Below are positions 3,693 to 48,572 of a stretch of DNA of 61,904 bases, in pieces (positions within the stretch are counted from its first letter, which is position 1; the number at the start of each line of letters is the position of its first letter). The translations under genes were made by a program, and so were the position numbers. Source of the stretch: Desulfobacterales bacterium (GTDB lineage Bacteria; Desulfobacterota; Desulfobacteria; Desulfobacterales; UBA2156); NCBI GenBank assembly GCA_027025555.1, contig JALVQN010000211.1:1-61904 (forward strand), in the 5' to 3' direction. The notes under the pieces were generated by a model. It was not told the origin of the DNA, made no database searches, and saw nothing but the letters and a program-made list of their open reading frames with translations.

Positions 3693-5258
3693 TCAAGCGA
3701 AATGCCTTGGATTCAGATCATACTTCTTGAGCCGGTATTGGAGGGTGGAGCGCGGCAGACCCAGAAGCCGGGCGGCTCCGTTTTCGCCGCCCACCACGCC
3801 GCGGCACTGGATCAAGGCCTGACGGATGTGTTCCCGTTCCACTTCATCCAGGGTCGCCACCCTGGAGGGGATCGGGAGGTTGCCGTTGATTTGCAGCACC
3901 TGTTCAATATCGCTTTCACGAATCCGTTCGTCCGGGCGTAAAATGATCATTCTTTTGATGAAGTTTTTCAGCTCTCGCACGTTGCCCGGCCAATGATATT
4001 GGCATAGAGCATCCAAGGCCCGGTCCGTGTAACGGGGCGCCAGTCGATTTATTCTTTTGGCTTGTAGTTCGGTGAGTTTTTCCACCAGCAGCGGGATGTC
4101 TTCTTTGCGTTGTCTCAAGGGCGGCACGTTGATGTTGACGGCATTGAGTCGATAGTAGAGGTCTTTCCGGAATTGACCGGCGGCAACGGCCGCCTCGATG
4201 TCCTTGTTGGTGGCGGCAATAACCCGAAAATCCACTTCTATGGAGCGGCTGTCTCCCACCCGTTCGAAACGGCGATCCTGCAAGACGTGCAGCAGTTTGG
4301 CCTGCAGGGACGCCGGCAGTTCCCCGACTTCGTCCAGAAACATGGTGCCGCCGCTGGCCATTTCGAAACGCCCGGTGCGCCGGGTGTCCGCCCCGGTGAA
4401 GGCGCCCTTGGCATGACCGAAAAGCTCGCTTTCAAAAAGCGAGGATGTCAGTGCCGGGCAGTTGGTCTTCACGAAGAGCTTGTCCCGGCGGGGGCTCAGG
4501 TTGTGAATGCAGCGGGCGATGTAGTCCTTGCCGGTCCCGGTCTCCCCGGTGATCAGCACGGTCACGTCCGTGTCGGCCAGGCGCTCGATGAGCTGCATGA
4601 TTTCCCCCATGGCCGGAGAGGCGAAAAAAAATCCGTCCGCATGGTAGTCCTCATCGGCATGGGCCATCAGGAACTGCTTTTCCCGCACCAGGTGGGCGTT
4701 GAGTTGCTTCAAATGGGTGTAGGCCAGCATGTTGTCCACGGCGATGGCCACCTGGTTGGAGACTTCGGTGAGCACTTGGGTCAGTTCCGGGATGTCCGCG
4801 GGTTTTTGGCGGAAGGAAAAATTGATGGTGCCTAAAATCATCCGGCGAACCACCAGGGGAAACGCCATGGTGCAGGTCAGCCCGGCAGCAAGCATGGAAC
4901 CGACGGAACTGCTGTCCCGGTAACGGCCCAGGTCTTCAATGATCACCGGTTTGCCGGAAAGGATGGCCATCTGGCTGATGGTGCCCTTGGAGAGGGGCCG
5001 GCTGTCTTTGCAGGAGATGCCGGCCGGATCGATGCCGTCGGAAGCGGCAAAATAGCTCAAGGACTGGGTGTCGGGATCATAGAGGTTGATGCTCAGGCGG
5101 TCATAGGAGAAGTGCTTGCGCAACTCGGTGGCCAGGGCCCGGAAAAGTTCCTCGCGGGTGGTGCGAGTGATAACGGCATTGTTGATTTTCAGAAGAATCT
5201 GATAGCGGGTCGCCGGATTCCAGCGCATGGGCAGGCTCCTGTAGGCATCGATCGACAA
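3693..5258 (-). CDS. sigma54-dependent transcriptional activator with N-terminal GAF domain
   Basis: 521 aa with Walker A (GETGTGKD), the GAFTGA sigma54-contact motif and a C-terminal Fis-type HTH. The N-terminal roughly 180 aa are GAF-like. Divergent from the uxaA-like operon. Confidence 0.9.
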   Translation of the reverse strand: MSIDAYRSLPMRWNPATRYQILLKINNAVITRTTREELFRALATELRKHFSYDRLSINLYDPDTQSLSYFAASDGIDPAGISCKDSRPLSKGTISQMAILSGKPVIIEDLGRYRDSSSVGSMLAAGLTCTMAFPLVVRRMILGTINFSFRQKPADIPELTQVLTEVSNQVAIAVDNMLAYTHLKQLNAHLVREKQFLMAHADEDYHADGFFFASPAMGEIMQLIERLADTDVTVLITGETGTGKDYIARCIHNLSPRRDKLFVKTNCPALTSSLFESELFGHAKGAFTGADTRRTGRFEMASGGTMFLDEVGELPASLQAKLLHVLQDRRFERVGDSRSIEVDFRVIAATNKDIEAAVAAGQFRKDLYYRLNAVNINVPPLRQRKEDIPLLVEKLTELQAKRINRLAPRYTDRALDALCQYHWPGNVRELKNFIKRMIILRPDERIRESDIEQVLQINGNLPIPSRVATLDEVEREHIRQALIQCRGVVGGENGAARLLGLPRSTLQYRLKKYDLNPRHFA

Positions 5259-5301: not shown

Positions 5302-5334
5302 GCCCAATATTGGGCATCATGCCCAATATTGGGC
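5302..5334. promoter_or_regulatory. two copies of the perfect 14-bp palindrome GCCCAATATTGGGC (candidate activator UAS)
   Basis: GCCCAATATTGGGC occurs at 5302-5315 and 5321-5334, with a degenerate third copy (GCCCAATGTTCCGC) at 5346-5359. They lie about 80-110 bp upstream of the -24/-12 element and next to the activator gene. Confidence 0.5.
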
Positions 5335-5412
5335 CCCAAAATCAGGCCCAATGTTCCGCCCTTGATAATAAAATATACTATTATATCCAAAAGTTACAAA
5401 TTTCCGGCATCC

Positions 5413-5427
5413 GGCATGGGATTTGCA
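5413..5427 (+). promoter_or_regulatory. sigma54 (-24/-12) promoter candidate
   Basis: GGCATgggatTTGCA with canonical GG-to-GC spacing (12 nt). Oriented toward the ATG at 5564. Confidence 0.6.
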
Positions 5428-5563: not shown

Positions 5564-5842
5564 ATGATCCAATTTTTAATTCATGACAGCCAGGATACGG
5601 TGGGTGTGGCGACGGTGGACATCAAGGCCGGAGAGGGGGCTCAGGGGCTTTACATGGACAGCCAGGAGAAGATGGAGGTAAGCGCGCTGCAGGATATCCC
5701 GCTTGGCCACAAGATCGCCCTGGCGGACCACAAGGTAGACGACGGGGTGATCAAATACGGCCATGATATTGGCCGCGTCGTGGCGCCCATTAAGAAAGGC
5801 GAACATGTTCACATTCACAATTTGAAAACCAGGAGGTGGTAA
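5564..5842 (+). CDS. UxaA-family small subunit (SAF domain), SuyA-like
   Basis: 92 aa matching the N-terminal SAF domain of altronate/galactarate dehydratases ([22 protein letters not shown]). Encoded separately from the catalytic part. GGAGGG RBS precedes the ATG at 5564. Confidence 0.75.
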
Positions 5843-5844
5843 CC

Positions 5845-7011
5845 ATGAGCAATTTGGGAACCGTATGGGGATACAGGCGCGAAAACGGGCGGGTGGGCAT
5901 CCGCAACCATGTTGTGATTCTACCCCTGGATGACCTTTCAAACTCGGCATGCGAGAAGGTGGCTTACAGCGTCAAGGGGTGCAAGGCGATTCCCCATGCT
6001 TACGGGCGGTTGCAATTCGGCAAGGACCTGGAGCTTTTTTTCCGCACCCTAATCGGCACCGGTGCCAATCCGAATGTGGCGGCTGTGGTGGTCATCGGCA
6101 TCGAGCCCGAATGGACCAACACCATCGTTGAGGGCATCGCTGAAACCGGCAAACCCGTGGTCGGTTTTTCCATCGAACGCTACGGCGATTTCAAGACCGT
6201 CGAAATGGCTTCCCGGAAGGCTTACGAGTTCATGCAATGGGCCAGCGAGCAGCGGCGTGAAGAAGCCGACCTGAAGGAGATCTGGGTTTCGACCAAATGC
6301 GGCGAGTCGGATACAACCAGCGGACTGGCCTCGAACCCTACGGTGGGCAATGTCTTTGACAGGCTGGTTGCAGCCGGTGCAACCTGCAGTTTCGGGGAAA
6401 CCTCCGAGATCACCGGGGGTGAAGAGGTATGTAAACAACGGGCCGCCACGGTGGAAGCGGGCGAAGAATTCATGCGGATTTTTAATGCCTACCAAGCCAT
6501 GATCGAGCGTTACAAGACCGATGATCTGTCCGGCAGCCAGCCCACCAAGGGCAACATCCGGGGCGGGTTGACCACCATCGAAGAGAAGGCCCTGGGCAAT
6601 CTGCAGAAAATTGGCAAGACATGCCGATACGTGGGCTGCCTGGACAAGGCCGAAAGCCCGAAAGGGCCCGGTCTCTGGTTCATGGACACTTCCTCGGCGG
6701 CCGCCGAGGCGGTCACCCTGTGGGCGGCGGCCGGATTCGTGGCGCATCTGTTCCCCACCGGTCAGGGGAACATCGTGGGCAATCCCATCGAACCGGTGAT
6801 CAAGCTGTCGGCCAATCCCTTGACGGTCAAAACCATGGCCGAGCACATCGACTACGACTGCTCGGCGATCCTGAAGGGGGAGATGACACTGGACGAGTCC
6901 GGTGAAGGCCTGCTGGAAATATTGAAAAGAACCTGCAACGGCCGCCTGACGGCCACCGAACTGCTGGGGCATGAAGAGTTCGTGCTGACCAAGCTTTACG
7001 AGAGTGCTTAA
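5845..7011 (+). CDS. UxaA-family large (catalytic) subunit, SuyB-like
   Basis: 388 aa corresponding to the C-terminal domain of altronate/galactarate dehydratase ([32 protein letters not shown]). AGGAGG RBS. Starts 2 nt after the small-subunit stop. Confidence 0.8.
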
Positions 7012-7122
7012 AGAGTGTTGGGGAGGGGATTTTCCGGCCTGCGGATGAAAATCAACCAAGGATACATAAGGCTTAGGAACTGTTTCAGAACCAAAAAGGG
7101 ACAAGAGAAAGGAGGCCGTACC

Positions 7123-8073
7123 ATGAAGCGGATGCTCAGTATATTTTTGGCCCTGGTCTGTGTGATGATGTTTGCCGTGCCCACCCTGGCCGGCAAGTAT
7201 CCCGCCAAAAAGATCGTTTACCAGATCCCGTTTAACCCCGGAGGCCAGTCGGATCTGGAAGCCCGCCGCCAGCAGCCGCTGCTGGAGAAACTGCTGGGCG
7301 TAAAGGTGGTGATCGAATACAAGCCCGGCGGCGGGGGATCCGTGGGCTGGGCCAACCTGGTGCGCAAGAAGCCGGACGGCTATTTTATTTCCGGCATCAA
7401 CATTCCCCACATCATTTTGCAGCCCCTGGCCAGGGGCAATGCAGGCTACAAGACCGAGCAGATTGTGCCCATCGCCTTTTTCCAGGCCACGCCCATCGGG
7501 CTGGCGGTCTTGAAAAAATCCCCCTTCAAGACCCTCAAGGATTTCGTGGACTACGCCAAAAAGAACCCCGGCGCCATCACCGTCGGCGGTTCCGGCACCT
7601 GGTCCGGGCACCACATCGCCAACTTGCAGTTCCAGAAGATGGCCGGCATCAAGCTGACCTACATCCCCAGCAAGGGAGCGGCTCCCAGCGTGGCCTCTTT
7701 TTTGGGCGGGCACGTGCAGGCCTTGTGGGGCAACTCCAATGACCTGTACCAGCACCGGGAACGTATCCGGGTGCTGGGTTTCGGCACCGAGAAACCCTTC
7801 GCGCCCATGCCCGAGGTTCCCACTTTCAAGAGCCAGGGGTATGCCCTGTTGGCCTCCATAGACCGGGGAGCCGGGGCGCCTCCCGGAACGCCTCCAGAGA
7901 TTATCCAGGTTCTGGAAAAGGCCTTTCTCACCATTGCCAACGACCCCGCCATCAAGGCGAAAATGCTCCAAGACGGGTTTATTCCCATTGCCATGGATTC
8001 GGCCCGGAGCAAGGCCTACATCGCCGAAAAGATCAAGCAGTGGGCGCCGGTGGTCAAGGAGTTTAAAAAGTAG
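7123..8073 (+). CDS. tctC: tripartite tricarboxylate transporter (TTT) substrate-binding protein, TctC/Bug family
   Basis: Signal peptide MKRMLSIFLALVCVMMFAVPTLA. Bug-family signature region FNPGGQSD...KPGGGGSVG. Confidence 0.85.
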   Translation: MKRMLSIFLALVCVMMFAVPTLAGKYPAKKIVYQIPFNPGGQSDLEARRQQPLLEKLLGVKVVIEYKPGGGGSVGWANLVRKKPDGYFISGINIPHIILQPLARGNAGYKTEQIVPIAFFQATPIGLAVLKKSPFKTLKDFVDYAKKNPGAITVGGSGTWSGHHIANLQFQKMAGIKLTYIPSKGAAPSVASFLGGHVQALWGNSNDLYQHRERIRVLGFGTEKPFAPMPEVPTFKSQGYALLASIDRGAGAPPGTPPEIIQVLEKAFLTIANDPAIKAKMLQDGFIPIAMDSARSKAYIAEKIKQWAPVVKEFKK

Positions 8074-8149
8074 AGCGATCCTGCAGACATTCCAACTCGG
8101 GGGCCGGCACCTCTCCCGCCGGCCCCCCCACCCATGAAGCGGTGCGGAC

Positions 8150-9676
8150 ATGCTTGATGCGGCAATCTCGGGTCTCGGCCACGTCTTCGAATTTTACAAT
8201 TTTTTATCCCTTTTCATCGGCGTGGTCATGGGAATCCTCTTCGGGGCGCTTCCCGGCCTGACGGCCACCATGGGACTGGCCCTGTTGGTCCCGTTTACCT
8301 TTACCATGTCACCGGCCAGCGGACTGATCATGTTGGCCGGCATCTACGTGGGGTCCATGTACGGGGATGCCATCCCCGCCACCCTGATCAACACACCCGG
8401 CACGCCGGCGGCCATCGCCACCACATTCGACGGGTTTCCCCTGGCTCAGAAGGGCATGGCCCAGCACGCCCTGGTCACCGCGGCGGTGGCGTCGTCGTTC
8501 GGATCCCTGCTGGCCAACATCGTGCTGGCCTTCGCCGCCCCGCCCCTGGCCGAGGCCTCCCTGAAGTTCGGTCCCTCCGAGTATTTCTGGCTGGGCGTGT
8601 TCGGCCTGACCATTATCGCCACCCTGTCTTCCGGTTTTATTTTCAAGGGCCTGCTGGGCGGGGCCATGGGGTTGATCCTGAGCACCGTGGGGATGTCGCC
8701 CCTGGGGGGTGATGTCCGGCTCACCTTCGGTTTCCCGGAACTGCAGGCGGGCATCGATTTGATCGTGGCGTTGATCGGCTTTTTCTGTTTGCCCGAGATT
8801 CTCACCAGCATCGTGGGACAGCGGCGCCGTTCCTATACTTCCCGGCAGGTCAACCCCAGCCTGAAGGTCATCGGCGAAGTCATCCGGGACCTGTTCAGGC
8901 AACCCGTTTTGATGCTGCGCTCCTCTTTCATCGGCACCATTATCGGGTTTGCGCCGGGCGCCGGGGGCAACATCGCCAGCATGGTTTCTTACAACGAGGC
9001 GGTTCGCTGGGACAAGCACCCGGAAGAGTACGGCAAGGGAACCATCAAGGGGGTGGCGGCCTCGGAGGCGGCCAACAGCGCCATGGCGCCCGGGTCGCTG
9101 ATACCGCTGTTGACCCTGGGCATTCCCGGCTCCCCTCCTGCGGCGGTCATCCTCGGCGCCTTGATGCTGCACGGCATGCGTCCCGGCGCGGAGCTGTTTT
9201 CCGCCTATGCCGACGTGACCTATGCCTTCATCATGGGACTGCTGGTGGCGGCCTTCCTGGTGACGCTCATCGGCACCTTCGGCTCATTCGTCTTTTCCCG
9301 CATCATCAACATTCCAGCGCGTTTTTTGGCCCCGGTCGTGGTTTTCATGACGATCCTGGGATCATACGCCATTCGCAACAACGTGCTGGATGTGTGGATC
9401 ATGCTGGTGTTCGGCATCATCGGTTTGGTCAGCAACAAGCTCAAGTTCCACCCGGCCACCATCGTGCTGGGCCTTATCCTGGGACCTTTCGTGGAGGAGG
9501 GCCTGGTCCAGTCCATCCTGGCCGGAAAAGCGGCGGGCAGCGTTATCCGTTACATGACCCTCCAGCCCATTTCCATGGTGCTGATCGCCATGAGCCTGAT
9601 GTCCGCCCTGTGGCCGCTGTATGCTTCCTGGCGGGAAAAGAAGCGGAACCCAGCCAGGGGCGCCAGAGAGAAATGA
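8150..9676 (+). CDS. tctA: TTT large permease, TctA family
   Basis: 508-aa polytopic protein with TctA-type motifs (GALPGLTATMG, GFAPGAGGNIAS, LGIPGSPP). Confidence 0.9.
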   Translation: MLDAAISGLGHVFEFYNFLSLFIGVVMGILFGALPGLTATMGLALLVPFTFTMSPASGLIMLAGIYVGSMYGDAIPATLINTPGTPAAIATTFDGFPLAQKGMAQHALVTAAVASSFGSLLANIVLAFAAPPLAEASLKFGPSEYFWLGVFGLTIIATLSSGFIFKGLLGGAMGLILSTVGMSPLGGDVRLTFGFPELQAGIDLIVALIGFFCLPEILTSIVGQRRRSYTSRQVNPSLKVIGEVIRDLFRQPVLMLRSSFIGTIIGFAPGAGGNIASMVSYNEAVRWDKHPEEYGKGTIKGVAASEAANSAMAPGSLIPLLTLGIPGSPPAAVILGALMLHGMRPGAELFSAYADVTYAFIMGLLVAAFLVTLIGTFGSFVFSRIINIPARFLAPVVVFMTILGSYAIRNNVLDVWIMLVFGIIGLVSNKLKFHPATIVLGLILGPFVEEGLVQSILAGKAAGSVIRYMTLQPISMVLIAMSLMSALWPLYASWREKKRNPARGAREK

Positions 9677-10125
9677 GCATGTTGAATGCGGATTTGATCA
9701 TCGGCATCTTCGCCTGGGTGGTGGGAGGCGTGGTTTTCGTCACGACTCGAGAGCTGAGCCCTCTGGGCGGCATGTTTGTCAACTATGTGCTGGTGGCCAT
9801 CTTTTTTCTGGGGGCCCTCATGCTCCTCAAGGGCTTCATAAAACCGGAAAAAATACAATTTTTTGAATCTGCGGGGGAACGTCGTAACATTATCATCGGG
9901 GTGGTCATGTTGGTGGTTTATTTGTATTTCATGCCCAAGGCGGGGTTTCTGCCGACAAGCTACATATTCTATATGGCCTTCAACATGTTTCTGGCCGAAG
10001 CGCCCTGGGCGCGGAAAAGCATCCTGCAATCGGCAGCGCTCAGTGCCGTGGTGGTCACCTTTTTTTACATGGTGTTTCATTACGGCCTGGGGGTTCCTTT
10101 GCCTGCCGGCGCATGGTGGGAGTAG
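9673..10125 (+). CDS. tctB: TTT small permease, TctB family
   Basis: 150-aa protein with 4 TM segments. Its ATG overlaps the tctA stop (ATGA). The order C-A-B differs from the usual C-B-A. Confidence 0.7.
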   Translation: MSMLNADLIIGIFAWVVGGVVFVTTRELSPLGGMFVNYVLVAIFFLGALMLLKGFIKPEKIQFFESAGERRNIIIGVVMLVVYLYFMPKAGFLPTSYIFYMAFNMFLAEAPWARKSILQSAALSAVVVTFFYMVFHYGLGVPLPAGAWWE

Positions 10126-10139
10126 AGGGATGTGGTGTT

Positions 10140-11183
10140 ATGCAACGATATGATCCTGAAAAAATTAAGCAACTGGCGGCAGACATTGCCCGGGCAGCTG
10201 GCGTACGGCCTCGGGACGCCGAGGTTCTGGCGGATTCCCTGGTGGAGGCCGATGTGCACGGCACTTCCACCCACGGCATATCCCGCTTGAATATCTATAT
10301 CCGACGAATCCAAAAGGGACTCATCGATCCCCGTGCAGGGCTGCAGATCGAGCGTCGGCGCCCGGCGGTCCTTGCGGTGGATGCCGGCAACGGCCTCGGG
10401 CAGGTCCAGGCGGTCAAGGTCCTGGAGCACCTGACGCCCCTGGCGCGGGAATTCGGGGTGGCGGCCGCCGCCATCCGCCGTTCCCAGCATTTCGGCACCC
10501 TGTCTTACTATTGCAACCGGGCGGCATCCCAGGACATGATGTTGCTTGCCACCACCAGCAGCGAACCGGCCATGTCGCCCGCGGGCGGCAGCCAGGCGTT
10601 TTTCGGCACCAATCCCATCGGGATTTCGTTTCCCACCGGCAAAGGATTCCCGGTGAAGATTGACCTGGCCACCTCCCGGGTGGCCCGGGGCAACATCATC
10701 GCCGCTCAAAAAAAAGGGGAGTCCATTCCGGAGGGCTGGGCCCTGGATCCCGACGGGGCCCCCACCACGGATGCGGGCCGGGCTTTGCTGGGTACGGTCT
10801 TGACCATGGCGGGCCACAAGGGCTATGCCCTGGCCATGATGGTGGAGGTGTTGTCCAGTGTGCTGTCCGGTGCAGCCGTGGGTGCGGCCATCGGTTCCAT
10901 GTACAAAGATTTTGATCGCCCGCAGAATGTGGGACATTTCTTCTGTCTCATGGATATAGCGGCCTTCATGGATGCGGCCGAATTCAGGCGTCGCATGGAT
11001 GCCATGATTGACGCCATTAAATCCTGTCACCGCCGGCCCGGTGTTGAGGAAATCCTCGTGCCGGGGGAACGGTCGCACCGGGTCGCCTTGGAGAACCGGA
11101 AGGAAGGCATTGTTGTGGGAGAGGCGACTCTGCAAGAGCTCAAAACCTTATGTCATGAACTCCAAATTCCCTTTATTTTGTAA
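10140..11183 (+). CDS. Ldh_2 family (malate/L-lactate/sulfolactate-type) oxidoreductase
   Basis: 347 aa with family-typical motifs (DVHGTSTHGISRL, SSEPAMSPAGG, GHKGYALA). Confidence 0.85.
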   Translation: MQRYDPEKIKQLAADIARAAGVRPRDAEVLADSLVEADVHGTSTHGISRLNIYIRRIQKGLIDPRAGLQIERRRPAVLAVDAGNGLGQVQAVKVLEHLTPLAREFGVAAAAIRRSQHFGTLSYYCNRAASQDMMLLATTSSEPAMSPAGGSQAFFGTNPIGISFPTGKGFPVKIDLATSRVARGNIIAAQKKGESIPEGWALDPDGAPTTDAGRALLGTVLTMAGHKGYALAMMVEVLSSVLSGAAVGAAIGSMYKDFDRPQNVGHFFCLMDIAAFMDAAEFRRRMDAMIDAIKSCHRRPGVEEILVPGERSHRVALENRKEGIVVGEATLQELKTLCHELQIPFIL

Positions 11184-11201
11184 CAGGCAGATGGATCGGT
11201 T

Positions 11202-12191
11202 ATGAAAAGAATTCTGGTTACGGAAAATATCACCGGTACCGCCATGGAGGCGTTGCAACGCACGTTCCGGGTGGACTTTGAACCGGATCTGTGGCGATTC
11301 CCCGAGGAGTTGGCTCAAGCGGTACGCGCTGCTGACGGACTCATCGTGCGCAACCAGACCCGGGTGACGCCGGAATTGATTCAACGGGCCCCTGAGCTTC
11401 AGGTCATCGGGCGCGCCGGCGCCGGCCTGGACAACATCGATGTGGAGGCGGCCAGTGCCGCCGGGATCGTGGTGGTTTACGCCCCCGAGCAAAATTCCAT
11501 TTCCGTGGCGGAGTTGACCCTGGCGGTGATGCTGGCCCTGGCCCGGAAACTCCCCGCCGCGGATCGTGACACCAAGGCCGGGGGATGGAACCGGCGGGAT
11601 TTTACCGGCGTGGAGCTTTACGGGAAAATTCTCGGCATCGTGGGCCTGGGACGGATCGGGTATCGCACGGCCCTGCGCGCCAAGGCGTTTGGCATGGATG
11701 TGATCGCCCATGATGCATATGTCAACCCCGACGGCATCACGGTTTCGGAGCCCAGGATCCCCCTGATGGATTTATCCGAGCTGTTGCGTCGCAGTGACGT
11801 GGTGGTCTGTCATCTCCCCTTGACCGATGCAACCCGCCACTTATTCAACTATGAAAACTTCTGCATGATGCAACCCACGGCCTTCTTTGTCAACAATTCC
11901 CGCGGCGCCGTGGTGGATGAAACGGGTCTGATCCGGGCCCTGGAAGAAAAGAAAATCGCCGGTGCCGCCTTGGATGTCCGGCAAAAGGAACCGCCGGTGC
12001 AAGATGCCCTCTGCAGGAGGGACAACGTCATCCTCACCCCGCACATCGGGGCCTTCACGCGAGAGGGCCAGCAGAGGGTGGTGACGTCTGTGTGCCGGGA
12101 TGTGGCGGCTGTGCTGGAAGGTCACGCAGCCAAGAACTATGCCAACTTCTCCCGTTTCTCCAGAGGGACCCGATTCCAACAACAGCTTTAA
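11202..12191 (+). CDS. D-isomer-specific 2-hydroxyacid dehydrogenase (PGDH-like)
   Basis: 329 aa with the NAD-binding motif GIVGLGRIG and the catalytic region NNSRG...LDV...TPHIGA. Confidence 0.85.
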   Translation: MKRILVTENITGTAMEALQRTFRVDFEPDLWRFPEELAQAVRAADGLIVRNQTRVTPELIQRAPELQVIGRAGAGLDNIDVEAASAAGIVVVYAPEQNSISVAELTLAVMLALARKLPAADRDTKAGGWNRRDFTGVELYGKILGIVGLGRIGYRTALRAKAFGMDVIAHDAYVNPDGITVSEPRIPLMDLSELLRRSDVVVCHLPLTDATRHLFNYENFCMMQPTAFFVNNSRGAVVDETGLIRALEEKKIAGAALDVRQKEPPVQDALCRRDNVILTPHIGAFTREGQQRVVTSVCRDVAAVLEGHAAKNYANFSRFSRGTRFQQQL

Positions 12192-13780
12192 GACTTCACG
12201 AGATAATTGCGCATCATGCCCATGTCCTCATGTTCTAAATTGTGGCAGTGGTAGAGGAACAGGCCCGGGTAATCGTCGAAGCCGACCAAGATTTTGACGC
12301 TTTCACCGGGCATCAGGAGGACCGTGTCTTTCCACCCCGCATCCACGTAGCCTTCGTGCCGTAACCCGCTGCGTGCCAGGACCCGGAATTGCTTGCCGTG
12401 CAGGTGCATGGGATGGGGCGTTTGCATCATCGGCATCATGCCGCCTCCGGTGTTATGAAACTCCCAGATTTCCCGGGAACCCAACCGAACGATCTCGTCA
12501 CCCGCCACATCTTCCATCTGAAATACCCGCCCGTTGATGGACCATTGCATGTGTCGCCCGGTGAGATGGAATCGTCGCGGACGATGGACATTGTCCGCCA
12601 GGTCCGGACGGGGAGGCTCAATCTCTGCAAGCCTGGGCGGCAGCGTGGAGCGCTTCTTCACTTTTTGCGTCACCTTGATTTTGAAGACGGGAAATCGGGC
12701 GCCAAGCAAAAGGGTTTGGCGTGTCCCCCTTCTCCCGGACATCCTCATCCCCCGGCCCATGCGGCCGCTTCCCATTGGCCCGCCGTCAAAAGGAAGGCTC
12801 ACGAGGGCGCTTTCATATCCCACCGGCGCCCCGCTGAAATCCCTCCAGAGTTCGATACGTTCGCCCGGGGCCAAAAATACATAGGCACGGGAAACCGGCT
12901 TTTCAAGGAGGCCTCCATCCGTGCCGATGACGGTCAGGGGCCGGCCGTCTCCCCATGCCAGGCGAAAGATCCGAGAGTTGGAGCCGTTTAACAGGCGCAA
13001 CCGGTAGGCGGTGGTTGATACGGGCAATGTAAAATCGGGCATGCCGTTGATCAGGATCGAATCGCCCAAAAAACCGGTCATCTGTTCCATCCCATGTCCT
13101 GAGAGGTATACCAGCTGGTTGTCGCCGTCAAAGGTGCGATCTTGAATGACCAAAGGCACGTCATAGCCCCCGTCGGGCAACCCCAGGGATCGCTCTTCTT
13201 CATCGGAAACAAGCAAAAGGCCGGCCAGACCTTGATAAACCTGGACCCCGGTGCGTCTGTGGGGATGCGGATGATACCAATAGGTGCCGGCGCGGTTCTT
13301 CACTTCAAACTCATAGAGATAGGACCGGCCGGAGGGAACCACAAAGCGTGGATGGCCATCCATGATGGCAGGCACATGGAGGCCGTGCCAATGGATAATC
13401 GATTTTTCGAAAATGGCGTTTTCAAAACGGATCCGTATTTTCTCGCCCTGACGCACTTTAATGACGGGTCCCAGATAGCTTTCGGGAAGTGGCACCACCC
13501 GGGATTGATCCCCCTTGTGAACCATGGCGTCGTAGCGCCAAATCCGCGTTCGCTCTCCGGGGAAAAGGGCCAGTTCATCGGGGTGGGCCGTCATGGAAAT
13601 ATCCAGATCCGGAATGAACTTTTTCTTTGAAGCGGTGTTGGGATTTCGTGCAGCAGCAAGAGGATCAAGAAAAGGCAGAAAGCTGCCGGTCATCAAACCC
13701 AGTGCGCCGAAGCCGGCCAGTTTCAGAAATTGCCTTCGATCCTTTTCGGTTTTCATCCGCAAGCGCGTGGCGTTTTTCAT
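12188..13780 (-). CDS. TAT-exported multicopper oxidase
   Basis: Twin-arginine signal (DRRQFLKLAGFG). Copper motifs IHWHGLH, WYHPHPH, HPMHLHG and HCHNLEHEDMGMM. Start moved to MKNATR (13780) because the -24/-12 element overlaps the upstream ATG at 13831. Confidence 0.85.
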   Translation of the reverse strand: MKNATRLRMKTEKDRRQFLKLAGFGALGLMTGSFLPFLDPLAAARNPNTASKKKFIPDLDISMTAHPDELALFPGERTRIWRYDAMVHKGDQSRVVPLPESYLGPVIKVRQGEKIRIRFENAIFEKSIIHWHGLHVPAIMDGHPRFVVPSGRSYLYEFEVKNRAGTYWYHPHPHRRTGVQVYQGLAGLLLVSDEEERSLGLPDGGYDVPLVIQDRTFDGDNQLVYLSGHGMEQMTGFLGDSILINGMPDFTLPVSTTAYRLRLLNGSNSRIFRLAWGDGRPLTVIGTDGGLLEKPVSRAYVFLAPGERIELWRDFSGAPVGYESALVSLPFDGGPMGSGRMGRGMRMSGRRGTRQTLLLGARFPVFKIKVTQKVKKRSTLPPRLAEIEPPRPDLADNVHRPRRFHLTGRHMQWSINGRVFQMEDVAGDEIVRLGSREIWEFHNTGGGMMPMMQTPHPMHLHGKQFRVLARSGLRHEGYVDAGWKDTVLLMPGESVKILVGFDDYPGLFLYHCHNLEHEDMGMMRNYLVKS

Positions 13781-13839
13781 GGGTCTCTCCCCTGGCAAAA
13801 AGTTGTTAATTTTAATTTTCCTGTCGCACACCCCAAAAG

Positions 13840-27655: not shown

Positions 27656-29053
27656 ATGAAGCAGTCGTTTGGCAAAACGGGGATATTGTGCCTTGTCCTG
27701 CTTTTGACAGGGATGGCTGCTTACGCCTTGGCGCAAACCCAGGAGACCAACTTGGCGCCAAAGGAGTTGGTCATCAAGAGGGGCTTCACCCAGAAGGCGT
27801 TGCAATGCATCGAATGCCATGCCAAGAAGATGCCGGGCATTGTTGAGAGCTGGCGCTCCAGCAGGATGAGCCATGCGGGGATTTCATGCTACGATTGCCA
27901 CGTGGTGAAGAAAAGCTCCCCCATGGCCAGCCAGTGTGAGGGTCTCAAGGGGACCGATACCTTCATCTCTCCCATGGTCTCCTCCAAGACCTGCTCCCGT
28001 TGCCACCCCCAGGAAGTGGAACAATTCCTGAAAAGCGGCCACGGGGCCCTGGCCAGTTCGGCGGTGATGGACCCCAAAAGGGGCAAACTCATCAAGCTCA
28101 TGTACTATTTTGAAGGGTGCGGATTCATGGACAAACTCAATCCCGCCGACCTCATCGCCACCGGGAAGACCCCTGAGGGACAGCCCAACTACATCCGCGC
28201 TTCCAGGGCCGCCGGCTGCCAGATGTGCCACGGCACCCTGGTGGAACTGGGCCCGGACAACAAGCCCATCAATGAGACCTGGCCGGCCGGCGTGGGGACC
28301 CGCTATCCGGACGGCTCCATCGGGACCTGTACGGTGTGCCACGAGCGCCACACGTTTTCCATCGCCGATGCCAGGAAACCGGAGGCCTGCGGTGCCTGCC
28401 ACCTGGGGCCGGATCACCCCAACATCGAGATTTACCTGGAGAGCAAGCACGGGCAGCTCTTCCAGGTTCAGGGGGAACACTGGAAGTTCGACAGCCCGCC
28501 GGGGGCATGGGAGCCCGGGGATTATCTGGCGCCCACCTGTGCCACGTGCCATATGAGCGGCATTGGAGACCTGGCCACCACCCACAACGTCCAGGAACGG
28601 TTGAAGTGGGACCTGATGCATAAAAAGAGCGTGATCCGCAGCGGTAACCGGGGAGACGGTGCAAAGGGCGAGCCGTTGATGCGCCGGGTCTGTGCCAACT
28701 GCCACAGCAAAACCCACACCAACGTCCAGCGGGCCACCCTGGACCACATGGTGGAGCTTTACAACAAACAGTGGGCGGCAGCCGTGAAGATGAAAGAGGA
28801 TCTGGCCAAGAAGGGACTTTTGAAGAAGGATCCATGGAAGGATCCTTTCCTGGAGCTCACGTATTACCTGTGGCATCACACCGGAAGAAGGGCCCGCCAG
28901 GGGGCCGCCATGAATGCGCCCGATTATGCGCATTGGCACGGGACCTTCCAGATGTTCCAGGTGCTCAAGGATATGGAAGATATCTATAACTATCGGGTCA
29001 AAAACAACAAGATCGAGGATCTCAGCCCGGTGATGAGCACGGCGCCGTACTAA
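27656..29053 (+). CDS. periplasmic octahaem cytochrome c, hydroxylamine-oxidoreductase (HAO)-like
   Basis: Sec signal peptide. Eight CXXCH motifs (CIECH, CYDCH, CSRCH, CQMCH, CTVCH, CGACH, CATCH, CANCH). Paired with a NapC/NrfH-type gene, as in epsilon-type Hao systems. Confidence 0.8.
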
Positions 29054-31276: not shown

Positions 31277-33532
31277 TTATTCCGGAAAGGCCTCCCCGGA
31301 GTTGACGGTTACGGGTTTGAGCTTTGCGATGGCTTTCAGCATGAAAAGGAGCAACGCCCCGGATCCGATGATGATGAGAAAGTCCGGAATTATCCGGGTC
31401 TGGCCGAGGAACTGGACCATGTCCTTTTGCCAGAATGCGTTGGAGCGGGCATGCCAGAATCCATATCGAATGTTGTCCAGGACATGGAGAATGCCGTTGG
31501 GCAACAGTGTGCCGGCGAACATGATGAACAGGCCGATGTTGGTTCCCCAGAACGCCACCTTTAAAAGCTTGGTGTTCCAGCCTTCATCGGTAACCAGGCC
31601 CCGCATGGAGAACAGAAGGAGACCGATGGCCAGCAGGCCATAAGTGCCGAACAGGGCGGTGTGGCCGTGGTTCACGGTGAGATAGGTGGCGTGCTCGAAG
31701 TAGTTGACCACCGGGGTGGTAATGGAGAGCCCCATCACGCCTGCGCCCAAAAACTCCCAGGCCACCGACGCCATGAGGAACATGAGGGGATAGCGGTAAG
31801 GAAAGTTGCTTCCCGCTTTCACCAGGGCCTTTTGGCTGTGCCAGACTTCTGCCAGCAAAAGTAAAATGGGAACCGGTTCCAAAGAGGAAATGGTGGAACC
31901 GAGCGCCAGCCAGAAGGACGGTTCCCCGAACCAATAGTAATGATGGCCCACACCGATGATACCGGAAGAAAGGGCCAGGGCCACGGTGAAATAAACGGTC
32001 CGGAGCCCTGCTTTCAGTTCCACCAGGCCGAGGTTCACCATCACGAAGACGATGGCCGCTGCAGCAAAGAACTCAAAGGCGCCTTCCACCCAGGTGTGCA
32101 CCACCCACCACCGCCAGAAGTCCGCGATGGTGAGATGGGTTTTGGGGTTGTAAAAGAGGCCGAAACAGAAAAAGCCCACCACCGCAATGCCGGAATAGGT
32201 CAGGAAATGGGGCAGGCCCCACTTGTCCTGGCCGGCGGCGAAGTGGCCTTTCAAGGCCCGAACCACCAAGAAAAGCCAGATGACCAGGCCCACCAGGAGG
32301 AGAATCTGCCAGAGCCTGCCGATCTCAAGGAATTCCCACCCCTGATGCCCCAGCCAGAACCAGAGGTCCCCGATGAGGCCTTTGATGCCCAGCACTTCAC
32401 CCACAAGGCTTCCCAGGGCCACCACCACCACGGCCACAAAGAGGACATCCACCAAAAACCCCTGGCCTTTCGGCTCTTTCCCGCCCACACGCGGTGCCAC
32501 GAAAAGGGTCATGCCGATCCAGGCCGTGGCGATCCAGAAGACGGCCAGCTGGAGATGCCAGGTCTTGGCCCAGTTATAGGGAATGAACTTGGCGATGGTA
32601 TCAAAACCGTAGAAGGAATCCGGATGCACCGTGTAATGGGCCATCAGTCCCCCCATGTTGACCTGGAGGAAGAAAAGTGCCGCCACCACCAGGAAGTATT
32701 TGGCGGTCTTTCTCTGGCTGGGGGAGATCCCGGCCGCTGCCAGGGCCTGGGCCGGTTCAGGCTGATACGGCAGAGCCCCCCGGTTGAACTGGTACTTGTG
32801 ATAGAGGAAGATCATGAGCCCCAGGCAGACGCCGAAGGCCACCAGGGAAATGGCGGACCACACCAGGGATTTTCCCGACACCCGGTTTCCCACATCCGGA
32901 TCGTGGGGCCAGTTGTTGGTATAGGTATGATCGTCGCCGGGACGGGTGGTTCCGGCCGCCCATGCGGTCCAGAAGAAAAAATCGGCCAGGTCCGTAAGCT
33001 CCTGGGAGTCCTGGATGGTTCCGGCCCGGATGGTGCCGCCCTTTTCGCCGTAAGTAAAAAGGGCATCATAAAACTTCCGGTTCTCCATGAAGGCGTATTC
33101 CTGGAGGGGAGTGAGGGTCAAGGTGTCTGTATGCTTATCATAGGCATTGGTTTTGATTTGCCGGATGACCGTGGCGTCCACGGCGCCCTTGACATGGTCT
33201 TCCAGGCTCGGATAGGGGGCCTTATACTTGTCTTGGGCCAGCTTTTCCCGCATGGTGATGCCCATGTTGTGGAGCGCCTGGGCTGTAAAGTCGGGCCCCC
33301 GGTAGGTGCCGTGGCCCCAGACGCTGCCCAGGTCCATGAGCCCGTACTTTTGCCAGACGCTTTGGCCGGACAAGATGTGTTCCCTGTCCGTCAAGACCGT
33401 GCCTTTTGTTGAGATCACCTTCCCGGGATAGGGCGGCAGGTCCTTGGTGGTGAAAAAGTACCCGATCAGTGCCACCGCAATGGCCCCGAAAATGGCGATG
33501 AGAAAATAGTTGCGAAGCCCTTTGCTGATCAT
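31277..33532 (-). CDS. norZ: quinol-dependent nitric oxide reductase (qNOR, NorZ/NorB-long)
   Basis: About 750 aa. N-terminal TM plus a periplasmic extension, then a 12-TM haem-copper-oxidase-like core (WGHGTY, VNHGHTALFG, GVGHHYYW). Start set at MISKGL (33532), behind an AAGGAGG RBS. Confidence 0.9.
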   Translation of the reverse strand: MISKGLRNYFLIAIFGAIAVALIGYFFTTKDLPPYPGKVISTKGTVLTDREHILSGQSVWQKYGLMDLGSVWGHGTYRGPDFTAQALHNMGITMREKLAQDKYKAPYPSLEDHVKGAVDATVIRQIKTNAYDKHTDTLTLTPLQEYAFMENRKFYDALFTYGEKGGTIRAGTIQDSQELTDLADFFFWTAWAAGTTRPGDDHTYTNNWPHDPDVGNRVSGKSLVWSAISLVAFGVCLGLMIFLYHKYQFNRGALPYQPEPAQALAAAGISPSQRKTAKYFLVVAALFFLQVNMGGLMAHYTVHPDSFYGFDTIAKFIPYNWAKTWHLQLAVFWIATAWIGMTLFVAPRVGGKEPKGQGFLVDVLFVAVVVVALGSLVGEVLGIKGLIGDLWFWLGHQGWEFLEIGRLWQILLLVGLVIWLFLVVRALKGHFAAGQDKWGLPHFLTYSGIAVVGFFCFGLFYNPKTHLTIADFWRWWVVHTWVEGAFEFFAAAAIVFVMVNLGLVELKAGLRTVYFTVALALSSGIIGVGHHYYWFGEPSFWLALGSTISSLEPVPILLLLAEVWHSQKALVKAGSNFPYRYPLMFLMASVAWEFLGAGVMGLSITTPVVNYFEHATYLTVNHGHTALFGTYGLLAIGLLLFSMRGLVTDEGWNTKLLKVAFWGTNIGLFIMFAGTLLPNGILHVLDNIRYGFWHARSNAFWQKDMVQFLGQTRIIPDFLIIIGSGALLLFMLKAIAKLKPVTVNSGEAFPE

Positions 33533-33608
33533 GGCAACCTCCTTTTTTGAAAGGTTTGAATGCATTGCGCTTTTTCCGCCCCAGTGCCCATGACGCCCTG
33601 GTCGCGGT

Positions 33609-41691: not shown

Positions 41692-42633
41692 ATGGAAATC
41701 AACAGACGATCCTTTCTCAAATTTTCCGGTGCGTTGGCGGCCGGCTCCGCGCTGAAGCCCACCGTTGTCCATGGGGGAAAGCCTCCAGCGCCGCCTGAGG
41801 ATGCCTTGGGATGCCTGGTGGACACCACCCTTTGTGTGGGATGCAGGAAGTGTGAACAGGCCTGCAACGCGCGTCACCATCTTCCCAAGCCGAAGGAATC
41901 CTTCGAAGAGATGACCGTTTTGGAAAACGAACGGCGGATGGACGAGACGTCGTACACGGTGGTGAACAAATACTACCCCAAACAGATCGGCACCCTCACC
42001 TGGCGGACCCGGCCCACCTTCGTCAAGTTCCAGTGCATGCATTGCAATGATCCTTCCTGTGTGTCGGCATGTATCGTGGGGGCCCTCACCAAGCAGGAGA
42101 ACGGGGCCGTGATCTATGATCCGAAAAAGTGCATCGGGTGCCGCTACTGCATGGTGGCATGTCCTTTTCAGGTCCCGGCCTATGAATACCGCAATGCCCT
42201 GACCCCCCAGGTGAGGAAGTGCACCTTTTGTTTCCAGTATGTGAAAGAGGGGGGGCTCCCGGCCTGTGCCCAGGTGTGTCCCAGGGAGGTGATCACCTTC
42301 GGCAAAAGGGCCGATTTGCTGCGCCTGGCCAAGTGGAAGATGAAGAGCAACCCGGGCAAGTATGTGGATCATATCTACGGGGAAAAGGAGGTGGGAGGGA
42401 CCTCGTGGCTCTACCTGGCCTCCGAACCCTTTGAGTCCATCGGCTTTCCCAAGCTCGGGACCAAAGCCCCGCCGAGACTCACGGAATCCATTCAGCACGG
42501 TCTTTTTCAATATTTTGCGGCGCCCATCGGCCTGTACGCACTTTTGGGAGGGATCATGTGGTTTACCGGTTACCTGAAACATTCCCACCGGGGCACCCCC
42601 CAAGAGACCCATGAGAAAGGAGACGCATCATGA
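41692..42633 (+). CDS. TAT-exported 4x[4Fe-4S] ferredoxin-type subunit (HybA/DsrO/NrfC family) with C-terminal TM anchor
   Basis: Signal peptide INRRSFLKFSGALAAG. Cys clusters CVGCRKCEQAC, CMHCNDPSCVSAC, CIGCRYCMVAC and CTFC...CAQVC. C-terminal helix APIGLYALLGGIMWFTGYL. Confidence 0.85.
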   Translation: MEINRRSFLKFSGALAAGSALKPTVVHGGKPPAPPEDALGCLVDTTLCVGCRKCEQACNARHHLPKPKESFEEMTVLENERRMDETSYTVVNKYYPKQIGTLTWRTRPTFVKFQCMHCNDPSCVSACIVGALTKQENGAVIYDPKKCIGCRYCMVACPFQVPAYEYRNALTPQVRKCTFCFQYVKEGGLPACAQVCPREVITFGKRADLLRLAKWKMKSNPGKYVDHIYGEKEVGGTSWLYLASEPFESIGFPKLGTKAPPRLTESIQHGLFQYFAAPIGLYALLGGIMWFTGYLKHSHRGTPQETHEKGDAS

Positions 42634-45600: not shown

Positions 45601-45902
45601 CCCACGAGGTCCTTCCCAAAGAGGAGGCCCTTTCGTGTGCCCATTGTCACCGGTCCCTCTCAAAAGCGCCCTACTGCGGCCGGTGCCACCAGGAAGCGCC
45701 GGGACAGGATTTCAAGAAGTTGGCCACCAGGGGGATCGACTTTAAGGCCCTGGCCGAGCAGGGCAAGGACGTGGCGGCGCTCATCGGGACCACCGATTAT
45801 CTCGATTTTAAGGCCCTGGGATATGCCGGGGATCCCGTCGAGACAGGGGGCCGGTTCAAGACATTGCCGTTGAGCCGCCGCCAGGTCACCGCGTTAAAAT
45901 AG
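42630..45902 (+). CDS. fusion protein: NrfD/PsrC-type polytopic membrane module plus a 13-haem periplasmic cytochrome c (tetrahaem c3-like region plus octahaem tetrathionate-reductase-like region)
   Basis: 1090 aa. The first roughly 400 aa are polytopic and NrfD-like. The remainder carries 12 CXXCH motifs and one CX3CH (CGMNCH). The central part (SHWKWRG, CTSCHIGYGW, CLVCHDTTGTYKK, HFRGGGGPGVKHG) resembles OTR-family octahaem cytochromes. Its ATG overlaps the upstream stop (ATGA). Confidence 0.85.
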   Translation: MNLHEEAAPVQEKFLTPGVMVLLGVMGVGAAFILTRFLFGIGKVANLNNQFPWGIWIGIDVASGVALAAGGFTTGAIAYVFNRDQFHAVIRPALLTAMLGYTFVVLGLVVDIGRYWNITSPVFHHNGNSVLFEVAMCVMIYLHVLYIEFIPIVVERFKGRVALPGPLAVLNGPIEALLGFADKVLSKIMWVFIIAGIVLSCLHQSSLGSLMLIAPYKVHPLWYTPILPLLFLLSAFAAGYPMVVFESILAAKSFDRRPEMEVLTPLARYMPVLMGLYLVFKLGDMVARGTYVYLLDGTYQTNSFIVEVLFGVIFPFVLLLFKRVRKSAGWLFFASTLWVLGILLNRINVFVVSYTPPYKIVSYFPALGEVFITAGLISGLMFLYRVFVFIFPVLGKQPKKMSPTALGMVIVMGVMVFNGRALGKEMDAASKRPMTLHAASVPSIKDAPKVFILESAVIKKYSDLYEPVRFMHSKHANVLGDCSICHHRMPREEGDTYGAPVKMEQLRAMKKVPVACSVCHGDPFNPRQLQVPGLKGAYHRLCMDCHKEAEQVPHVRGPVLYSAMVRGPVARTLDTRAPTDCLACHAKKVPDHTKLVTLEGQVDAQAVTKNCLSCHRAEGEALLKTSHWKWRGPSPYTIGHEKRTDLGKHSNTINNFCINLNGNWPRCTSCHIGYGWKDADFDFKDMSKIDCLVCHDTTGTYKKAPAGAGFPKKDVDLVKVAKHVGRPSRATCGMNCHFRGGGGPGVKHGELGPTLLMGTSQNDVHMGVDRKGMNFKCQDCHKTRNHMISGRSISIPASEGDLSCEYCHTDRPHIGADPVDHHLNRHTKHVACQTCHIPLYAKNAPTKIYWDWSTAGQDRKVEKDPYDMPTYHKKKGSFKWKQSAKPRYFWYNGTVKRYVLGDRINEKGVTELTKPVGSPADPASRIYPFKIHSGKQISDAVYKYLITPKLYGGFWKHWDWDKAARDGMAAAGLKYSGEYEFVDTVMYWGLTHEVLPKEEALSCAHCHRSLSKAPYCGRCHQEAPGQDFKKLATRGIDFKALAEQGKDVAALIGTTDYLDFKALGYAGDPVETGGRFKTLPLSRRQVTALK

Positions 45903-45961
45903 CTCAGACGGCACACCCCTGGGCCATTTCAGCGGTTCATTGAAAAAAAGGAGGAGACGCG

Positions 45962-46294
45962 ATGTTCAAAAAAGGGGCAATCATTTTCTTGGCAGTGTTG
46001 TTGGTGGGGGTTTACATCGGCCTGGTCTTGGCGGCCGAGAAGAAGGGGAATGATCGAAAAGGAAAGTATCTTTTCCGGAAAAATTGCCGGTCTTGCCACG
46101 TGGAAGGGGGCAGTGCAAAGGAGCTCAGCCCGGTGAGCAAGACCCAGGCCGAATGGGAGAAGGCGTTTAAGGAGTACGAAAGCCTTTCCTGCAAGGACGA
46201 GTGGCGCAAACTTTCCGATCAGGACAGACTCGACATTTTTACTTATCTTCATGAGCATGCATACGATTCGCCGTCCCCCATCAAGTGCAGTTAG
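45962..46294 (+). CDS. membrane-anchored monohaem cytochrome c
   Basis: 110 aa with an N-terminal hydrophobic helix and a single CRSCH motif. Confidence 0.7.
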   Translation: MFKKGAIIFLAVLLVGVYIGLVLAAEKKGNDRKGKYLFRKNCRSCHVEGGSAKELSPVSKTQAEWEKAFKEYESLSCKDEWRKLSDQDRLDIFTYLHEHAYDSPSPIKCS

Positions 46295-46342
46295 GCAGGG
46301 GGGCTGAAAAGGTGCTGGAAAGCGGATTCGGGGGAGATTGAC

Positions 46343-48535: not shown

Positions 48536-48572
48536 GGCCCCCGTTCCGCATTGAAAAGGATAAGGACGGCCG

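Follow-up and report, generated by a model that had tools for sequence, protein, structure and literature searches.

We analysed a 61,904-nt contig assigned to the Desulfobacterales (JALVQN010000211.1; this whole stretch is hereafter called the window), in which seven tightly spaced genes on the plus strand at 5564-12191 form a candidate operon for the catabolism of 3-sulfolactate. A preliminary description of the window, made without database searches, had proposed such an operon, and gene calls and Pfam searches recovered every gene that it had listed, on the plus strand and in the positions that it had given (Table 1). Its two bounds coincide with the start codon of the suyA-like gene and the last gene's stop codon. 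In order, the genes encode the small and the large subunit of a UxaA-family enzyme, a complete TctC/TctA/TctB set of the tripartite tricarboxylate transporter (TTT) type, an Ldh_2-family oxidoreductase and a second, D-isomer-specific 2-hydroxyacid dehydrogenase (2HADH). The Pfam E-values ruled out chance domain matches. Intergenic gaps range from -13 to +111 nt, the latter being the largest, and two gene pairs overlap; these gap sizes fit a single transcription unit. The suyA stop codon and the suyB start codon are separated by 2 nt, and a GGAGG sequence lies 8 nt ahead of the suyA ATG. Scans for terminators and sigma-70 promoters returned nothing convincing within or downstream of the operon. 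On the other strand, convergent with the operon, lies a gene for a CueO-like multicopper oxidase, whose frame overlaps the last stop codon by 4 nt.

Table 1. Coordinates of the operon genes, candidate control elements and other features of the window
Feature	Coordinates	Strand	Details
suyA-like SAF small subunit	5564-5842	+	92 aa, 10.2 kDa; PF08666
suyB-like UxaA-family large catalytic subunit	5845-7011	+	388 aa, 42.1 kDa; PF04295 (1.8e-32), PF20629 (7.2e-82)
TctC-type periplasmic substrate-binding protein, SlcH-like	7123-8073	+	316 aa; PF03401
TctA large membrane subunit, SlcG-like	8150-9676	+	508 aa; PF01970 (4.5e-143)
TctB small membrane subunit, SlcF-like	9673-10125	+	150 aa; PF07331; 4-nt overlap with tctA
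Ldh_2-family NAD(P)-dependent 2-hydroxyacid dehydrogenase	10113-11183	+	356 aa; PF02615 (1.7e-117)
Short PGDH/SERA-type D-2-hydroxyacid dehydrogenase (2HADH)	11202-12191	+	329 aa; PF00389, PF02826
Sigma-54 enhancer-binding protein, candidate operon regulator	3693-5228	-	GAF_2, Sigma54_activat, AAA_lid_14, HTH_8
Paired palindrome, candidate upstream activator sites	5302-5334	.	two exact copies of GCCCAATATTGGGC
Candidate sigma-54 (-24/-12) promoter CGGCATGGGATTTGCA	5412-5427	+	GG-N10-GC
CueO-like multicopper oxidase	12188-13831	-	
Multihaem cytochrome	27656-29053	+	
Quinol-type nitric oxide reductase-like protein	31277-33565	-	NorB + cytochrome c-like domain
Respiratory cluster	41692-49220	+	four genes

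Identity of the split lyase

The first two genes encode a 10.2-kDa SAF protein and a 42.1-kDa protein with GD_AH_second and GD_AH_C domains, as expected from the earlier proposal of a UxaA-family enzyme split into subunits of about 10 and 42 kDa. Characterised SuyAB enzymes, including that of Desulfovibrio DF1, likewise consist of a small SAF subunit (about 8-10 kDa) and a large catalytic subunit (about 42 kDa) from adjoining genes. This split architecture is not exclusive to SuyAB, since a heteromeric L-fuconate dehydratase has been inferred from gene context in the UxaA/GarD superfamily (unpublished data cited in PMC6336799) and another split clade was found in Variovorax. Because the architecture is thus not decisive, SuyB proteins backed by gene context were sought as references, using the large subunit as a tblastn query against 72,556 plasmids. 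Thirteen plasmid records matched at 61-66% identity, and all others at 40% or less. The upper group included SuyB from recognised sulfonate clusters of Cupriavidus pinatubonensis and Paracoccus (65-66%). In C. pinatubonensis (66%) the order LacI-hpsN-hpsO-MFS-hpsP-suyA-suyB, with a major facilitator superfamily (MFS) carrier, matches the published hpsRNOUPsuyAB cluster for 2,3-dihydroxypropane-1-sulfonate (DHPS) in this species (PMC11382572). Two further plasmids of the 66% group carry GntR-suyA-suyB-exporter with an hpsN-like gene close by (Paracoccus versutus) and, with a tripartite ATP-independent periplasmic (TRAP) carrier, TRAP-hpsN-hpsO-hpsP-suyA-suyB-Ldh-exporter (Rhodobacteraceae SC52). 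To the same SuyB group belong Methylobacterium oryzae, whose locus reads TauE-suyAB-DctA-type carrier-dehydrogenase-Ldh, with two dehydrogenases, and also holds a molybdopterin sulfite-oxidase-like gene and an exporter gene, and Rhodococcus koreensis, in which suyAB occurs with an aldehyde dehydrogenase, an MFS carrier, two further dehydrogenases and Ldh. Among 1.84 billion cluster representatives searched, one full-length match stood at 66%, a few at 42-52% and the remainder at 40% or less; identity of the large subunit to every other UxaA-family clade was at most 52%.

In a neighbour-joining tree of 111 sequences, the large subunit and its close relatives joined the context-validated SuyB proteins in one clade (bootstrap 93/100), with Escherichia coli UxaA and GarD as remote outgroups to all split enzymes. 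Where UxaA has the cysteines C132, C166 and C199, the window protein and all 12 SuyB-clade sequences show Leu, Arg and a gap, and the fourth, C152, is retained in the window protein. These four residues are conserved across the UxaA/GarD superfamily with the exception of sulfolactate sulfo-lyase (PMC6336799). The three cysteines are also missing from about 40% of the other family representatives, so their loss is necessary but not sufficient for a SuyB assignment. The small subunit was 45-54% identical to SuyA of C. pinatubonensis, Paracoccus, Methylobacterium and SC52, compared with 33% for the small subunit of the Variovorax non-SuyB enzyme, and it shares the C-terminal ending HNxKTxRW with the validated SuyA proteins. 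Recombinant SuyAB of Desulfovibrio sp. DF1 converts sulfolactate to pyruvate and sulfite, and SuyB homologues more than 70% identical occur in Proteobacteria, deltaproteobacterial sulfate reducers and Firmicutes (PMC6278857). SuyB of the Desulfovibrio loci among the 80 closest loci (see below) was 68-69% identical to the window large subunit. Judged by these sequence comparisons, 5564-7011 encodes a SuyAB orthologue, with sulfo-lyase activity as the predicted function. It differs from the characterised systems in its setting, a Desulfobacterales-like genome with no adjoining sulfite exporter gene, and in being controlled apparently by a sigma-54/GAF activator and not by a GntR- or LacI-type regulator.

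The preliminary description had named a sugar-acid pathway as its alternative. The split enzyme would then be a dehydratase of the altronate, galactarate, fuconate or arabinonate type, with a sugar acid as the cargo of the TTT system and its keto-deoxy product as the substrate of the dehydrogenases. Indeed, the enzyme shares superfamily and fold (SAF, GD_AH_second, GD_AH_C) with the UxaA/GarD dehydratases of altronate, galactarate, D-arabinonate and D-idonate, as well as alpha,beta-elimination from a 2-hydroxy acid. Its Pfam domains are those of galactarate/altronate dehydratase, and the galactarate dehydratase GarD is both the sole NCBIfam match (TIGR03248) and the sole structure (6u7l) found in a PDB search with the large subunit, which leaves no SuyAB structure to compare. 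The heteromeric L-fuconate dehydratase mentioned above also speaks for this alternative, as does the name "D-galactarate dehydratase" borne by close homologues in some NCBI records; the automated names of near-identical metagenomic homologues, which also include "(2R)-sulfolactate sulfo-lyase subunit beta" and "UxaA family hydrolase", were not used as evidence here. However, the GarD model scored 132 bits against a cut-off of 731. In the known dehydratases, one polypeptide chain of about 500 aa carries four conserved cysteines, whereas the window enzyme is split, keeps one of these cysteines and lies far from UxaA and GarD in the tree. Moreover, no aldolase, kinase, isomerase or keto-deoxy-sugar-acid gene adjoins the operon, and the neighbours of the SuyB clade in 80 species are sulfonate genes (HpsN/O/P, exporters, SorA-like) and not genes for sugar acids. 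Clustering with altronate or galactarate dehydratases, which the preliminary description had named as refuting its sulfolactate proposal, was not observed. On phylogeny and cysteine pattern we rejected a sugar-acid dehydratase identity, and we give a sugar-acid pathway hardly any weight.

The other split UxaA clade was represented by Variovorax sp. PBL-E5 plasmid 3 (L012 4514-9277), with a protein 39% identical to the window large subunit. This split enzyme is flanked by genes for a GntR regulator, a hydroxyacid dehydrogenase, TctC and an Ldh-family oxidoreductase.

The two dehydrogenases and the transporter

For the Ldh_2 protein, the earlier assignment to the ComC family held (PF02615, with NF040650, sulfolactate dehydrogenase, as the top NCBIfam match at 277 bits, cut-off 500), but orthology with canonical ComC did not: the protein is 34-40% identical to the common suyAB-linked ComC type and falls into a separate clade. 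The best structures in the PDB were a Thermus type 2 malate/lactate dehydrogenase (248 bits), the L-sulfolactate dehydrogenase of Methanocaldococcus jannaschii (2x06; 244 bits) and ureidoglycolate dehydrogenase (174 bits). Given the score below the cut-off and the separate clade, we filed the protein as one that works like ComC and not as a ComC orthologue. Similarly, the second dehydrogenase belongs to the D-isomer-specific family, as proposed, being of the SERA or phosphoglycerate dehydrogenase (PGDH) type, and it lies outside the canonical SlcC clade (36-43% identity). SlcC itself has been placed in or beside the SERA clade (PMC6303947). The PGDH model TIGR01327 matched the 2HADH with 342 bits (cut-off 454) and only over model positions 1-313 of 525, that is, over the catalytic part, and the regulatory domains are absent; the best PDB match was the type III PGDH 1wwk. 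The anion-binding Arg of the PGDH-type site is kept in the window 2HADH, within the sequence VRNQT. The form VRN[RQK]T, an ad hoc signature drawn from the present comparison and not an established criterion, was seen in all eight SuyAB-linked 2HADHs inspected, from both lineages described below, and the equivalent phosphate-binding Arg-Ser loop of PGDHs (1wwk, human PHGDH) reads VRS. The Variovorax enzyme lacks the signature, and so does the 2HADH near suyAB in locus L033, which is more distant.

SuyAB-linked Ldh_2/2HADH pairs fell into two lineages (loci compared: window 10113-12191, L016 7693-9539, L075, L089, L025 and L097). The minor one unites the window pair with acidobacterial and verrucomicrobial loci, and Rhodococcus is its sister. 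Two acidobacterial loci (L075, L089) have the order suyA-suyB-Ldh_2-2HADH, with the same order of the pair as in the window (Ldh_2 62-63%, 2HADH 51-56% identity); in the verrucomicrobial locus L025 an Ldh_2 73% identical stands beside suyAB and SorA-like and exporter-like genes, so that identity to the suyAB-adjacent Ldh_2 proteins of these three loci spans 62-73%. The acidobacterial copies had previously been annotated comC/slcC (PMC6018796). L016, whose SuyB is 89% identical to that of the window, carries the common Paracoccus-type pair, which on these comparisons implies that the dehydrogenase module was replaced between close relatives. Reverse plasmid searches with both dehydrogenases gave no separation of a sulfolactate role: SerA and unlinked Ldh-family proteins scored at least as high as the suyAB-linked ones. 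We thus treat the Ldh_2 protein as a candidate (R)-sulfolactate dehydrogenase and the 2HADH as a candidate (S)-sulfolactate dehydrogenase, in ComC-like and SlcC-like roles, both from this minor SuyAB-linked lineage. For the pair as a racemase we lean towards a positive answer, because the two families have opposite stereospecificities and the link to suyAB recurs independently; the assignment does not draw on orthology.

The TTT genes were complete, as the preliminary description had claimed. The TctC N-terminus, MKRMLSIFLALVCVMMFAVPTLAG, resembles a signal peptide (judged by eye). The suyAB-adjacent counterparts in L016 are 71% (TctC) and 82% (TctA) identical, and TctA is 45% identical to the suyAB-adjacent permease of Paracoccus aestuarii. 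Two of the top five plasmid matches of TctC adjoin suyAB; the best match, from Salipiger, does not. This Salipiger sp. CCB-MM3 plasmid system (L096 4598-10970) lies near two LysR genes and a mandelate racemase-family enzyme gene, and after the suyAB cluster of P. aestuarii there is likewise a gene of the mandelate racemase family (L014 16250-17413). Such neighbours may point to a link to sulfosugar-acid dehydratases.

Related loci, control region and host context

The operon was then compared with the 80 species loci closest to the window SuyB (66-89% identity), onto which a panel of reference proteins was mapped. Within 10 kb of suyB, SuyA was found in 79 of the 80 loci, Ldh_2 in 36, 2HADH in 27, a GntR regulator in 26, TctC in 22, HpsN/O/P in 11-16, TRAP carriers in 12-13 and a sigma-54 activator in 10. 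The closest species, a Deltaproteobacteria metagenome-assembled genome (MAG; L016, 89%), has a divergent sigma-54 activator gene (S54) in the order S54 < 2HADH-Ldh_2-suyA-suyB-tctC-tctA-tctB, and the rumen MAG Desulfovibrio sp. RGIG3713 (L045) has S54 < suyAB-tctCA-2HADH-Ldh_2. Content and order were nearly identical on the P. aestuarii plasmid p296221 (GntR-suyA-suyB-tctC-tctBA-hydroxyacid dehydrogenase-Ldh-exporter), where suyAB is followed by TTT genes and then by the dehydrogenase pair. There, in contrast to the window, tctB and tctA are fused, the order of the dehydrogenases is reversed, and a GntR regulator and an exporter are present. Identities to the window proteins were 66% for SuyB, 45% for SuyA, 37% for TctC, 45% for TctA, 39% for 2HADH and 37% for Ldh_2. 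This recurrent gene order in P. aestuarii and in a Desulfovibrio MAG, together with the SuyB-clade lyase, supports the earlier reading of a sulfolactate utilisation operon.

The known pathway closest to this arrangement is SlcHFG-SlcC-ComC-SuyAB. In the sulfite respirer Taurinivorans muris LT0009, slcHFG-slcC-comC and suyAB are induced by sulfolactate (PMC10507020). A TTT-type transporter is assigned to sulfolactate in both Chromohalobacter salexigens (Denger and Cook 2010, as cited in PMC10507020) and T. muris, and the same four functions as in the window (TTT uptake, a D-2HADH-family dehydrogenase, an Ldh_2-family dehydrogenase and SuyAB) stand in one cluster. T. muris is, moreover, a Desulfobacterota anaerobe as well. 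The window differs in its single seven-gene operon of the order suyAB-tctCAB-Ldh_2-2HADH and in its separate dehydrogenase lineage, which has 34-43% identity to the common SuyAB-linked type and occurs also in Acidobacteria, Verrucomicrobia and Rhodococcus loci.

Sulfolactate might also be an intermediate, with the operon serving as the lower part of a pathway for DHPS, cysteate or a sulfoquinovose-derived compound. The Ldh_2 protein would then mainly reduce sulfopyruvate derived from cysteate, as happens in Paracoccus pantotrophus, with the transporter importing another sulfonate. This would agree with the many related loci in which suyAB is tied to HpsN/O/P and to TRAP or MFS uptake of DHPS, and with the cysteate route of P. 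pantotrophus via sulfopyruvate, sulfolactate and SuyAB (PMC11193023). However, no hpsN, DHPS or sulfolactaldehyde dehydrogenase, aminotransferase or cysteate gene was found in or beside the operon, its transporter is of the type assigned to sulfolactate as described above, and this TTT type accompanies suyAB in P. aestuarii, L016 and L045, where DHPS genes are absent. We consider this alternative unlikely compared with direct uptake of sulfolactate.

The candidate racemisation genes of a further group of loci were of a different kind. In eight related loci (L001 8541-9569; L002 8268-9569; L017, L018, L037, L041, L052 and L058), including that of the cultured Desulfovibrio cuneatus DSM 11391, a LarA-family gene (Lar_N/LarA_C) adjoins suyAB. 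All are Desulfobacterota-type genomes, judged by their names, and none of the eight carries the Ldh_2/2HADH pair. The closest solved relative of the LarA homologue is the malate racemase Mar2 (237 bits). Its position beside suyAB and the absence of the pair from the same loci make it a candidate nickel-pincer sulfolactate racemase. We found no paper tying LarA to sulfolactate in the literature searched.

The likeness to malate racemase of this LarA homologue, which replaces the pair in sister loci, also fits another alternative, in which the lyase would act on a different C3 or C4 2-hydroxy acid (a tartrate isomer, glycerate or another sulfonated hydroxy acid) and the dehydrogenases would epimerise that same compound. 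The non-canonical type of the dehydrogenase pair points the same way, as do the Variovorax split-UxaA clade, with similar neighbours and no assigned substrate, and the many kinds of carboxylates carried by TTT systems. HpsN makes (R)-sulfolactate. SuyB identity of 65-70% across phyla and linkage to HpsN and sulfite-handling genes argue instead for a conserved substrate. In addition, an Ldh_2 of the window type stands in L025 beside suyAB and the SorA-like and exporter-like genes, and the 2HADH keeps the PGDH-type anion-binding Arg with the Asn variant of all SuyAB-linked 2HADHs examined. We regard a substrate other than sulfolactate as quite improbable.

Upstream of the operon lies the divergent gene for the sigma-54 enhancer-binding protein, which combines a GAF sensor, an AAA+ sigma-54 interaction domain and a Fis-type HTH, and homologues of this activator (53-63% identity) are encoded divergently upstream of suyAB in L016-L021 and L058. 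Between the activator gene and suyA, the 14-bp palindrome GCCCAATATTGGGC occurs at 5302-5315 and 5321-5334, with starts 19 bp apart; these are the two matches in the whole window at up to 2 mismatches, against 0.48 expected. In L016 (position 7147), L019 (9505), L021 (9525, 9544) and L058 (2752, 2771) the palindrome likewise lies in the gap that separates the activator gene from the first gene of the operon, and in L018 (3308) it lies upstream of tctC. Often doubled at the 19-bp spacing, it is kept across suyAB loci with differing cargo (TTT, TRAP-hpsNOP, LarA). This conservation indicates that it is probably the binding site of the activator. An AT-rich stretch separates the palindromes from CGGCATGGGATTTGCA, which lies about 137 nt upstream of the suyA start and has 2 mismatches to TGGCAC-N5-TTGCW. 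The promoter call rests on this position and on better -24/-12 sites at the matching position in L019 and L021. The operon thus appears to be under sigma-54 control with upstream activator sites.

The closest homologues come from Desulfobacterales-type MAGs and from Desulfotignum. To judge from Desulfovibrio DF1, Bilophila and T. muris, the released sulfite could plausibly serve as an electron acceptor. The window does hold genes of anaerobic respiration elsewhere: a four-gene respiratory cluster encodes an HmcB-like Fe-S protein with a twin-arginine translocation signal, a TtrB/DsrO-like Fe-S protein, a 1090-aa protein in which an NrfD/HmcC-like membrane part is fused to an octahaem cytochrome of the tetrathionate-reductase family, and a PhsA-like molybdopterin subunit (560 bits, below cut-off). 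The octahaem part matched TIGR04315 above its cut-off (524 bits), and the fusion looks unusual. The gene content of the cluster suggests respiration of an inorganic sulfur compound. The window also encodes a multihaem cytochrome and a quinol-type nitric oxide reductase-like protein (Table 1).

Proposed pathway and possibly interchangeable racemisation modules

We read 5564-12191 as a sulfolactate catabolic operon of the SlcHFG / SlcC-ComC / SuyAB kind, with a probability of about 0.8. According to this reading, the GAF-domain sigma-54 activator would bind the paired palindromes and open the -24/-12 promoter, from which one transcript would cover all seven genes. TctC would capture 3-sulfolactate and TctAB would import it, as family membership and recurring adjacency to suyAB suggest. 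The D-specific 2HADH would oxidise (S)-sulfolactate to 3-sulfopyruvate, and the L-specific Ldh_2 enzyme would reduce 3-sulfopyruvate to (R)-sulfolactate, so that both enzymes together would act as a racemase. The Fe(II)-dependent two-subunit SuyAB, here identified by orthology, would then cleave (R)-sulfolactate to pyruvate and sulfite. Pyruvate would enter energy metabolism, and the host probably reduces sulfite to sulfide, a step suggested solely by its Desulfobacterales-like relatives and the published precedents. Earlier publications describe both the pathway and its presence in sulfidogenic anaerobes, and the window operon is a further example.

Several observations count against the reading of a sulfolactate operon. 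Both dehydrogenases score below every NCBIfam equivalog cut-off, and the pair is 34-43% identical to canonical SuyAB-linked SlcC/ComC, even when compared with L016, the relative with the 89% identical SuyB. The 2HADH is about 40% identical to genuine SerA, which is comparable to its identity to the SlcC type, with higher bit scores for SerA, and the best plasmid matches of the Ldh_2 protein are not suyAB-linked. TctC is only 37-43% identical to the suyAB-adjacent TctC proteins other than that of L016 (37-39% for the proteobacterial ones), and its specificity cannot be read from sequence. The SuyAB references were context-validated orthologues and not the purified proteins of P. pantotrophus NKNCYSA or Desulfovibrio DF1; the SlcC, ComC and SlcH proteins of C. 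salexigens and the T. muris proteins likewise stood outside the sequence comparisons, and none of the 80 closest loci belongs to these organisms. As for the control region, the sigma-54 consensus is not enriched in the window (27 found versus 31 expected), and the promoter match is weak when taken alone. No dsr, apr, sat or sulfite exporter gene occurs within the window. Finally, the Variovorax split-UxaA clade has neighbours of the SuyAB-operon type, so gene content by itself is not diagnostic. For annotation, clade and cysteine pattern, and not the neighbours, separate SuyB from other split UxaA enzymes.

The two dehydrogenase lineages and the LarA-family gene suggest module swapping at the racemisation step. 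Three separate solutions to racemisation may have arisen in anaerobic sulfolactate catabolism, all on a single conserved chassis of SuyAB, an uptake system and the sigma-54/GAF activator with its palindrome, an idea that we hold tentatively, at slightly less than even odds. The three solutions may be the canonical SlcC/ComC pair (L016), the Ldh_2/2HADH pair of an unrelated lineage in the window and the LarA-family racemase of the sister loci. If this is true, the window pair would be an independently recruited sulfolactate racemase, and the LarA homologue would be a sulfolactate racemase that has not been described.

Breakdown of DHPS and of sulfoquinovose, the sulfosugar of plants and algae, yields sulfolactate as a major product, and cleavage of sulfolactate by SuyAB gives sulfite back to the sulfur cycle. 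As a compact seven-gene unit, the locus can be expressed and tested, and it points to interchangeable racemisation modules, among them a candidate LarA-type sulfolactate racemase. A complete operon for uptake, racemisation and desulfonation in a Desulfobacterales-like lineage would place organosulfonate use beyond the Desulfovibrionaceae, in which it has been studied, and if the host reduces the sulfite, the operon would serve organosulfonate respiration.

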